Of a DNA stretch of 64,000 nucleotides, positions 11,971 through 12,873 are shown piece after piece. This DNA is from Candidatus Pacearchaeota archaeon. Its GTDB lineage: Archaea; Nanobdellota; Nanobdellia; UBA10117; JAFCGA01. Position 1 is the first letter of the stretch. Every line of letters begins with the position of its first letter. The DNA is taken from the NCBI GenBank assembly GCA_017608345.1, contig JAFCGA010000001.1, positions 97,766 to 161,765 of the forward strand, in the 5' to 3' direction. The notes under the pieces are model-generated. The model did not search any database and had not been told where the DNA came from. It was given only the letters and a program-made list of their open reading frames with translations. Position numbers and translations under genes: made by a program.

Positions 11971-12135
11971 CGCCGGGAACGGGATTTACATCGAACAAGT
12001 TCGCTAAAACAAACTACGTTCATTTTGAACCCGTATACCCCGAAGAGTCTAGCTAGCTACTACTTAAATTAGCAGGCTAGTGCCATTTTCTGCTGCCTTC
12101 AAAAGAAAGACAGTACCAGATTAGGCGATCCCGGC
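11971..12135 (-). tRNA. tRNA-Ser(GCU) precursor with at least three introns (D-loop region, canonical 37/38, T-loop)
   Basis: Read on the minus strand. Acceptor stem GCCGGGA/UCCCGGC is perfect and the discriminator is G73. The D-loop has A14 and G18G19. Anticodon stem CUAGC/GCUAG carries the loop CUGCUAA (anticodon GCU). The long variable arm is ACUC-UUCG-GGGU. T-arm ACGGG-UUCAAA[39 nt]AU-CCCGU. Total length is 165 nt against ~86-90 nt mature. Confidence 0.6.
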
Positions 12136-12195
12136 ACGAGATATCCTACTATAAATTTACTTAAAAAGTTGCCGATAGTTCTAATTTTAATAAAC

Positions 12196-12210
12196 GAAAG
12201 CTTTTTAAAT
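12196..12210 (+). promoter_or_regulatory. BRE/TATA box GAAAGCTTTTTAAAT upstream of ORF 12234
   Basis: A consensus motif ending 24 nt upstream of the ATG. Confidence 0.45.
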
Positions 12211-12233
12211 CAAAATTAGGGCGTTATTGTACA

Positions 12234-12605
12234 ATGACAACTAATAAACCACTAAAAAAGTGGTCCAAGATGGGAGAAGTATCTCCTGAACAAAGATTAC
12301 CTAAAGGCCAGCAAAGCTGGTTAACTAGAACTTGCAATCGAACTGGGATTAAAAATGTTCCCGAATACCAACCGACTATAGCACCAATACCTCGAGTCGG
12401 CGGACAGATTCACGCAGTCTCAACTCCATACGGAACTCAAGCTGCAGCTGAACTAACTAGCCAGAGACCGCTAGACTCCAGAGCAAAAAGCGCATTCGAG
12501 CTAGATCTTATTCTACGCGACGGTTTTACAATACCACAGAACAACGAAGGCGAAGCTGTTACTCAATGGCCTTGTCGGATCGGTAGTTATATCTCAAAAA
12601 AGTAA
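12234..12605 (+). CDS. hypothetical protein (123 aa)
   Basis: An ORF with a consensus promoter; no recognisable motif. Confidence 0.4.
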   Translation: MTTNKPLKKWSKMGEVSPEQRLPKGQQSWLTRTCNRTGIKNVPEYQPTIAPIPRVGGQIHAVSTPYGTQAAAELTSQRPLDSRAKSAFELDLILRDGFTIPQNNEGEAVTQWPCRIGSYISKK

Positions 12606-12612
12606 GCTCTTG

Positions 12613-12628
12613 AAAAGACTTTTAAATC
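12613..12628 (+). promoter_or_regulatory. TATA box AAAAGACTTTTAAATC upstream of tRNA-Phe
   Basis: It ends 24 nt upstream of the first tRNA base (12652). Confidence 0.45.
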
Positions 12629-12666
12629 ACTCTTTTACTTTAGTTATTATTGGGGTCGTAGCTCAG

Positions 12667-12703
12667 AGTCTTTCTTTCTCCTTGGGCGAGAAAGGCGAGT
12701 AAC
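12667..12703 (+). other. D-loop intron of tRNA-Phe (boundaries +/- 2 nt)
   Basis: The insert AGUCUUUCUUUCUCCUUGGGCGAGAAAGGCGAGUAAC lies between GCUCAG and UCGGGAGAGC. It has an internal hairpin CUUUCUC/GAGAAAG. Confidence 0.6.
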
Positions 12704-12747
12704 TCGGGAGAGCACTAGACTGAAGATCTAGGTGTCATGGGTTCAAA

Positions 12748-12859
12748 CGCTGCCCCTTTCTTTTAGAAAAAGAAAGGTGTAAGGTAGCCCAAAGAAAAGG
12801 CATTTACTACGCGACTTCGTCGCTCCGAATATGCCTTCGGCAACTTTGCAGCTGGAAAA
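12748..12859 (+). repeat. T-loop intron of tRNA-Phe, a member (C1) of the dispersed C-type structured repeat family
   Basis: A 10-bp hairpin CCTTTCTTTT-AGA-AAAAGAAAGG, then CCCAAAGAAAAGG and CGACTTCGTCGCTCCGAAT blocks, align with 38573-38670 and with the reverse complement of 35449-35552. The intron ends GCUGC/GCAGC pair next to the T-stem. Confidence 0.6.
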
Positions 12860-12873
12860 TCCCATCGACCCCA

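Follow-up and report, generated by a model that had tools for sequence, protein, structure and literature searches.

The minus strand of the window (the entire 64-kb stretch of DNA that was analysed) carries a tRNA-Ser(GCU) gene of 165 nt, which runs from G1 at position 12135 to G73 at position 11971 and in which four exons are separated by three inserts (Table 1). Read along that strand, the order of its elements is GCCGGGA UC GCC UAAUCUGGU(28 nt)AU GGC A CUAGC CUGCUA(15 nt)A GCUAG ACUCUUCGGGGUAU ACGGG UUCAAA(39 nt)U CCCGU UCCCGGC G, the lengths in parentheses standing for the inserts. Their removal leaves a class II tRNA of 83 nt with G73. The 7-bp acceptor, 3-bp D, 5-bp anticodon and 5-bp T stems and the long variable arm of a class II tRNA-Ser are all present in the structure that ARAGORN gives for this product. 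U8, G18G19, A21, U33, the anticodon GCU, A37, G53:C61, UUCAAAU and G73 are likewise kept (invariant columns of our alignment; the anticodon as called by ARAGORN). The genome assembly comprises 1.05 Mb in 15 contigs and is 88% complete.

An earlier note on this DNA had placed a minus-strand tRNA-Ser(GCU) gene with at least three introns at positions 11971-12135. These coordinates are exact and the introns number three. Every element that it had described was found again: the acceptor GCCGGGA/UCCCGGC, the GG of the D-loop, CUAGC-CUGCUAA-GCUAG, the UUCG-capped ACUC/GGGU, ACGGG/CCCGU, the 39-nt insert in UUCAAA↓U (arrows mark junctions) and the hairpin CUGUCUU-UCUUUUG-AAGGCAG of the D region.

Table 1. 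Positions of the tRNA-Ser(GCU) gene parts and neighbouring features in the window
Feature	Position	Strand	Remarks
TATA-like box CTTTTTAA (within AACTTTTTAAGT)	12161..12168	-	-33..-26 from the mature 5′ end; putative promoter
Exon 1: acceptor GCCGGGA, U8 C9, D-stem GCC, D-loop UAAUCUGGU (positions 1-20)	12115..12135	-	
Intron 1, D-loop 20/21, 28 nt: A-CUGUCUU UCUUUUG AAGGCAG-CAGA-AA	12087..12114	-	
Exon 2: A21 U22, D-stem GGC, A26, anticodon stem CUAGC, loop CUGCUA	12070..12086	-	anticodon GCU 12073..12071
Intron 2, canonical 37/38, 15 nt: AUUUAAGUAGUAGCU	12055..12069	-	
Exon 3: A38, GCUAG, variable arm ACUC-UUCG-GGGU-AU, T-stem ACGGG, T-loop UUCAAA	12024..12054	-	
Intron 3, T-loop 59/60, 39 nt: AUGAACGUAGUUUGUUUUAGCGAACUUGUUCGAUGUAAA	11985..12023	-	family A
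Exon 4: U60, T-stem CCCGU, acceptor UCCCGGC, discriminator G73	11971..11984	-	CCA not encoded
123-aa ORF	12234..12605		no Pfam match
tRNA-Phe gene	12652..12873	+	T insert at 59/60

Exon boundaries and identity of the spliced product

In its unspliced form the gene escapes the usual finders. ARAGORN found no tRNA in the whole window, and no tRNA was returned by Rfam, whether at gathering scores in the window or at E ≤ 10 around the tRNA-Ser(GCU) locus. Intron-aware prediction had been proposed as a check in the earlier note, and ARAGORN does recover the gene after splicing: the 83-nt product was called tRNA-Ser(gct), as opposed to none of 300 shuffled controls. The call is lost when either the D or the T insert is retained; with the anticodon insert retained, it is made only in intron mode.

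We compared the spliced sequence with seven tRNA-Ser(GCU) sequences of the same order, five without introns and two from which a 37/38 intron of their own had been removed. It aligns with these over its full length, with a single 1-nt gap that falls in the variable loop and with identities of 71-80%. In an alignment of 11 Ser sequences, 99.5% of the stem cells are paired and changes on both sides are seen in 15 of the 20 pairs; when the structure was slid along the same alignment by 1-3 columns as a control, only 29-44% were paired. Searched against its own genome, the spliced query gave an exact 31-nt match over its positions 39-69, which are exon 3.

The intron-less orthologue of genome G015 has the same D-loop as the spliced product, TAATCTGGTAT, and the D intron was therefore placed at 20/21; register 21/22 gives the same product (A repeat). 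Two GGC triplets had been considered as possible partners in the D stem. The second one (12084..12082) proves to be the partner, the first being inside the intron hairpin. Because the T-loop must read UUCAAAU, the T insert is 39 nt long; registers 56/57 to 59/60 give identical products, and the geometry of the bulges favours 59/60.

The length of the anticodon insert had been left at 11-15 nt. We retain 15 nt, which makes the second GCUAG the 3′ side of the anticodon stem, because the resulting variable region of 14 nt agrees with the 13-15 nt of the orthologues; registers 37/38 and 38/39 give the same product. The same gene could also be read with an 11-nt anticodon intron (12068..12058) and the first GCUAG as the 3′ stem strand, and ARAGORN indeed accepts the corresponding 87-nt product as tRNA-Ser(gct) and returns i(39,11) in its intron mode. 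However, this shorter intron leaves a variable region of 18 nt that departs from the orthologues, with which the 83-nt product aligns with its single 1-nt gap. Moreover, the MFE structure pairs CUAGC with the second GCUAG, and a helix CUGC:GUAG with its 3-nt bulge suits the 15-nt reading only. We thus regard the 11-nt intron as improbable.

A split or permuted gene was rejected, all exons being colinear within 165 nt. Self-splicing group I or group II introns were also rejected: the inserts measure only 15-39 nt and not hundreds of nucleotides, and Rfam recognized no ribozyme core, giving no match in the window.

Folding, splicing motifs and proposed processing

Folded by RNAfold without constraint, the unspliced 165 nt adopt an MFE structure of -62.3 kcal/mol that contains the four tRNA stems, the variable-arm hairpin and three extra arms. 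Dinucleotide shuffles of the sequence reach -42.4 ± 4.0 kcal/mol (z = -5.0), and none of the 200 folds as well. A bulge-helix-bulge (BHB) motif, or a relaxed hBH/BHL form of it, can be read at all three junctions, from the MFE structure for the D intron, manually for the anticodon intron and in relaxed form for the T intron. At the D intron of the MFE structure, exon UCUG pairs with intron CAGA over 4 bp, followed on the 5′ side by a 3-nt bulge GUA and then by an 8-bp hairpin; the bulge contains the predicted 5′ cut site, and AAAU of the 3′ side lies in an internal loop. At the anticodon intron, CUGC (32-35) can be paired manually with GUAG, with a 3-nt bulge CU↓A adjoining the stem CUAGC:GCUAG. 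On this manual reading, the motif would be a bulge-helix-loop (BHL) with the 5′ site in the loop; RNAfold favours a neighbouring 4-bp register, GCUA:UAGC, instead. The T intron forms a 13-bp hairpin of its own in the MFE structure. There, UUCA:UGUA pairs at three of four positions (one U-U mismatch) with bulges AA↓A and AA↓U; this helix is open in the MFE structure, and the modelled motif is best described as a relaxed BHB.

A single EndA gene was found in the genome (C6:49291-49551, 98.9 bits; locus L021 1057-1788). The protein of 243 aa has N and C domains and is closest, among PDB structures, to the N. equitans alpha subunit and M. jannaschii alpha4; it is without the insertion that N. equitans alpha carries beside the catalytic His. 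Enzymes of the alpha4 type are classically thought to require strict BHB motifs. Ahead of the usual N and C domains, the protein has a Lys-rich N-terminal extension of 69 aa (MPKAKTKTAKKTTKK...KKKKKS...), a basic tail that might help to bind relaxed splice motifs. The genome also encodes RtcB (C10:10548-11846, 531.7 bits).

In tRNA-Ser(GCU), the start of a TATA-like box precedes the mature 5′ end by 32-33 nt, and the box CTTTTTAA is found at -30 to -33 before most candidate tRNA genes, including those of Phe, Ser(UGA) and Ser(GGA). Across the genome, about 25 candidate tRNA genes are preceded by such a box (CTTTTTAA, TTTATAA or TTTAAAA) at a near-fixed spacing of 30-33 nt, which implies that 5′ leaders of tRNA genes are very short or absent. 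Loss of RNase P as the cause of this fixed spacing was rejected, since the genome has a full-length RNase P RNA candidate at C2:80007-80332, with 69.7 bits, which is under the Rfam gathering score.

In the processing route that we propose, the gene's own TATA-like promoter would drive the synthesis of a pre-tRNA of about 165 nt. The pre-tRNA would fold into a cloverleaf in which the introns form extra arms at 20/21, 37/38 and 59/60. Exon bases would pair with the 3′ ends of the introns (UCUG:CAGA, CUGC:GUAG and UUCA:UGUA), so that the cut sites come to lie in bulges or loops. The single EndA would then cut at these sites and RtcB would join the four exons into the 83-nt class II tRNA, to which CCA, not being encoded, would be added afterwards. 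We infer both the cleavage and ligation of the pre-tRNA and the exact registers within the A-runs.

The case for the gene rests on its anatomy and fold, on how well it agrees with orthologues, and on the finding of both a promoter box and the two enzymes, EndA and RtcB. As far as sequence can tell, we consider it very probable that the locus is a single functional tRNA-Ser(GCU) gene with three EndA-type introns of 15-39 nt in an uncultured DPANN archaeon of about 1 Mb, of the Woesearchaeota/Nanoarchaeia type as judged by the names of its EndA homologues, that is, a real gene probably with an essential role. Its invisibility to standard finders and its imperfect T-loop splicing motif would also be expected of a decaying pseudogene, a former tRNA-Ser that took up three insertions and has ceased to be processed into a working tRNA. 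Yet the four stems are intact, U8, G18G19, A21, U33, G53:C61, UUCAAAU and G73 are all kept, and both a splicing motif and the promoter box are present. In addition, dozens of tRNA genes in the genome share such a build, and the gene is the sole AGY decoder found: no second tRNA-Ser(GCU) gene was found in the 88%-complete assembly, in which AGY accounts for 34% of serine codons (197 long ORFs). A pseudogene is therefore very unlikely.

Relationships of the D-loop and T-loop introns

Two other serine tRNA genes of the genome, Ser(GGA) (C12:11321, 94-nt intron) and Ser(UGA) (C10:5512, 33 nt), carry an intron at the D site of Ser(GCU). The three D introns have in common a UCUG:CAGA core and the end ...GCAGAAA↓AU, the first 27 nt of the three genes are 89-96% identical, and their acceptor stems are identical. 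Ser(CGA) of the same genome is without intron and resembles the orthologues of relatives, and no Ser gene interrupted at position 21 was found in 40 related genomes. These observations point to a D intron common to the three serine genes by descent or duplication, or by gene conversion. Ser(UGA) (C10:5512-5628) has a chimeric appearance: its first 27 nt, a stretch that takes in the D-loop intron site, are 96% identical to Ser(GGA) (C12:11321-11572), and its remainder matches the intron-less Ser(CGA) (C7:30669-30752) with 86% identity. Such a mosaic suggests recombination or gene conversion among serine tRNA genes. A D insert following GGU (GGU↓AC...AA↓AU) is present in Ser(GCU), Ser(GGA) and Ser(UGA) as well as in Gly(GCC), Val(GAC) and Val(CAC). 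A permissive BLAST of the three introns against their own genome produced nothing beyond noise where the D and anticodon introns were concerned, words of the CTTTCTTT type being ubiquitous.

T-loop inserts are numerous in this genome: 17 candidate tRNA genes have one, always as TTCAAA↓...↓T (59/60). For the neighbouring tRNA-Phe gene, the earlier note had claimed T-loop and D-loop inserts at the same places as in Ser(GCU), and it had suggested the spread of introns between tRNA genes. The T-loop site is indeed common to the two genes, at 59/60. The D sites differ, however, since the Ser intron follows G18G19U20 (20/21, central helix UCUG:CAGA) and the Phe intron precedes the GG (15/16, helix GCUC:GAGU). 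The proximity of the genes, each with a 59/60 and a D-loop insert, and the presence of GTCTTTCTTT in both D inserts could be taken to mean that the two genes swapped introns, both Ser inserts being copies of Phe inserts at identical sites. This is hardly credible in view of the different D sites and of T introns that are unrelated in sequence (z = 0.5), and GTCTTTCTTT is a polypyrimidine 10-mer that is frequent genome-wide, with a non-significant E-value. A genome-wide comparison of T introns, also proposed in the earlier note, places the Ser intron with those of Gly(GCC) and Cys(GCA), and the Phe intron with those of Trp(CCA) (C4:25007) and Pro(UGG) (C1:88612). The idea of intron spread is supported in general by the 17 inserts at 59/60, by Gly(GCC) and Cys(GCA) and by the related genomes described below, but not for the Ser-Phe pair.

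The two neighbours are divergently oriented in the window, and the region between them (12136-12651) contains a short ORF (Table 1). In relatives, tRNA-Phe and tRNA-Ser(GCU) form a same-strand tandem with 60-160 nt between them (loci L003, L010-L012 and L019).

The T intron of Ser(GCU) aligned significantly with those of Gly(GCC) (z = 5.5), Cys(GCA) (z = 6.6), Glu(UUC) and the gene at C2:69861, with z values of 3.8-6.6 over the set. We named this group family A. Its members are about 40 nt long, are inserted at 59/60 and follow the pattern AYGRAC...GUUUUA(A)GCGAACUKGUUCGAUGUAAA; the outer helix YGRAC:GUUYG is kept, and all changes in it preserve pairing. The genome contains at least two T-loop intron families besides family A. 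Family B consists of CAGCCTTTTTCT...AGAAAG hairpins in Ser(GGA), Ile(GAU), Val(GAC) and the genes at C2:97007, C7:11208 and C1:91007, and family C unites the Phe, Trp(CCA) and Pro(UGG) introns mentioned above, which have common blocks of 37-45 nt with 92-96% identity. GAACTTGTTC, a word that forms the core of the hairpin in the T intron, occurs 12 times in the genome against about 2 expected. Several copies stand outside tRNA genes, as CGAACTTGTTCG mini-hairpins; sites of the word include C1:6393, C1:21701, C1:37217, C1:202358, C10:14250 and C10:35590.

A pattern scan of the order revealed a family A element at 59/60 in genomes G013, G019, G035 and others. The hosts are Ser(GCU) and Ser(CGA) in G013, Pro in G010, Phe and one more tRNA in G019, and other tRNAs in G002, G035 and G037. 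Family A is thus present in the genome studied here and in at least six others of the same order (at least seven genomes in three families), in tRNAs of varied identities. A 23-mer of its 3′ end, searched with up to 3 mismatches in 401 genomes of the class, matched only genomes of the same order; the family was not found in about 360 genomes of the class outside the order, and reversed-pattern controls gave no hit. Between our genome and G013, the T introns of Ser(GCU) are identical at 37 of 40 positions (92.5%), compared to 67 of 85 (79%) for the exons (Fisher one-sided p = 0.044). G013 and the congeneric G019 have Ser(GCU) exons that are identical at 82 of 84 positions (98%), and the T intron is present in G013 only.

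Closely similar introns are therefore found in tRNA genes of different identity, which is how transposed tRNA-intron families are recognized. Tentatively, and with slightly less than even confidence, we propose that the 39-nt T intron may be a copy of a mobile structured element of about 40 nt that targets 59/60 of many tRNAs, with fast turnover and possibly horizontal movement, within one DPANN order. For the distribution of family A, precise intron loss is an alternative to transposition. Should family A prove mobile, it would extend the description of intron-transposition systems beyond Thermoproteales for the first time, and G013 and G019, with a filled and an empty site respectively, would form a tractable pair.

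The pattern of family A resembles the intron 'transposition' of Thermoproteales (PMC4090602), in which multi-intron tRNA genes and introns 'transposed' between genes have been described (Sugahara et al. 2008; Fujishima et al. 2010, as summarized in PMC4090602 and PMC3239211). According to the same summaries, the tRNA genes of Thermoproteales share with Ser(GCU) up to three BHB-type introns per gene, non-canonical sites, near-identical introns in unrelated tRNAs and a failure to be seen by standard finders. [quoted passage not shown] Unlike in Thermoproteales, the introns of the present genome cluster at two hot spots, 20/21 and 59/60. Membership of the host in the Thermoproteales lineage was rejected on account of its single EndA gene, whose homologues in a large database are named Woesearchaeota, Nanoarchaeia, Nanoarchaeota or DPANN.

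Disrupted tRNA genes in the genome, its order and other archaea

Only 14 tRNAs of the genome score above the Rfam cut-off, and ARAGORN reports 13. Our own scan (perfect 7-bp acceptor, U8, G53:C61 T stem with TTCRA, T-loop insert allowed) retrieved 73 candidates, of which 38 are distinct, with a GC-rich acceptor and a tRNA call, and most of these are interrupted. This census serves for counts and junction patterns only, the identity calls of ARAGORN -i being noisy (enumerated D-loop excisions). The T introns of the genome usually end in (N)GAAAA, with a central helix UUCA:NGAA. Ser(GCU) is the only tRNA gene of the genome resolved with three introns. It is also the only AGC/AGU decoder found, and it was missed by both ARAGORN and Rfam. 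The apparent tRNA gap, with 14 of about 45 detected, is an annotation artefact of the heavy intron load and not a loss of genes.

Within the same order, the number of tRNAs detectable with Rfam RF00005 varies from 3-8 up to 30-42 per genome. The low counts (3-8) are those of G002, G014, G017, G023 and G035-G038, some of which are 86-92% complete, and the high ones (30-42) belong to other families of the order. Because the counts range so widely across the order, heavy disruption of tRNA genes is patchy yet widespread. The low numbers suggest that it is even heavier in these eight genomes than in our own, and the presence of only 3-8 detectable tRNAs in several sister lineages is probably an annotation artefact too. 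Searches for close relatives of the locus in metagenomes, using a 25-mer of exon 3 and the neighbouring 915-aa ORF, gave no match.

Multi-intron archaeal tRNA genes are already known and are rare, three introns being the reported maximum (PMC3239211), and tRNA-Ser(GCU) is a further example. In the micrarchaeon ARMAN-2, pre-tRNA-Cys(GCA) has an intron at 59/60 and pre-tRNA-Pro(GGG) has introns at 53/54 and 59/60, and cleavage at 59/60 was shown in vitro (PMC3239211). ARMAN-2 is comparable to our case in its DPANN host, its T-loop 59/60 site and its relaxed hBH/BHL motif (PMC3239211). It differs in its EndA, a three-unit epsilon2 enzyme of about 395 aa as opposed to 243 aa here with a single N and C unit and a Lys-rich tail, and in a 59/60 intron of 13 nt instead of the 39 nt with a long hairpin of Ser(GCU).

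According to Kaneta et al. (2018, PMC5829648), DPANN lineages with an alpha4-type EndA possess numerous disrupted tRNA genes, and their predicted tRNA sets are incomplete, standard prediction being unable to fill them. These lineages belong to the same superphylum and have the same type of enzyme as our archaeon (PMC5829648). That study did not resolve the hidden genes, whereas Ser(GCU) is here resolved to the base and assigned to intron families. The L3 loop discussed in PMC5829648 was not identified in a non-rigorous look at the present EndA. A base-resolved DPANN tRNA gene with three introns and a simple alpha-type EndA bears on the evolution of substrate breadth, and the intron families, together with filled and empty 59/60 sites in congeneric genomes, provide material on the gain and loss of archaeal tRNA introns.

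A scan of genome contigs with the 21-mer of exon 1 returned only tRNA-Ser(GGA) genes of Nitrososphaerales, and no close relative. The first 21 nt of these genes, found in metagenome-assembled genomes (MAGs), are identical to those of Ser(GCU) (GCCGGGATCGCCTAATCTGGT), and the genes contain several inserts, one of them in the T-loop after GGGTTCAAA. They differ in phylum, anticodon and intron sequences, and their upstream insert follows the D-arm and is not in the D-loop. The common 21-mer reflects the conservation of tRNA-Ser. In the Nitrososphaerales/Thaumarchaeota MAGs (L022-L049), Ser(GGA) has up to three inserts of its own, whose sites follow the D-arm and lie within the anticodon and T loops.
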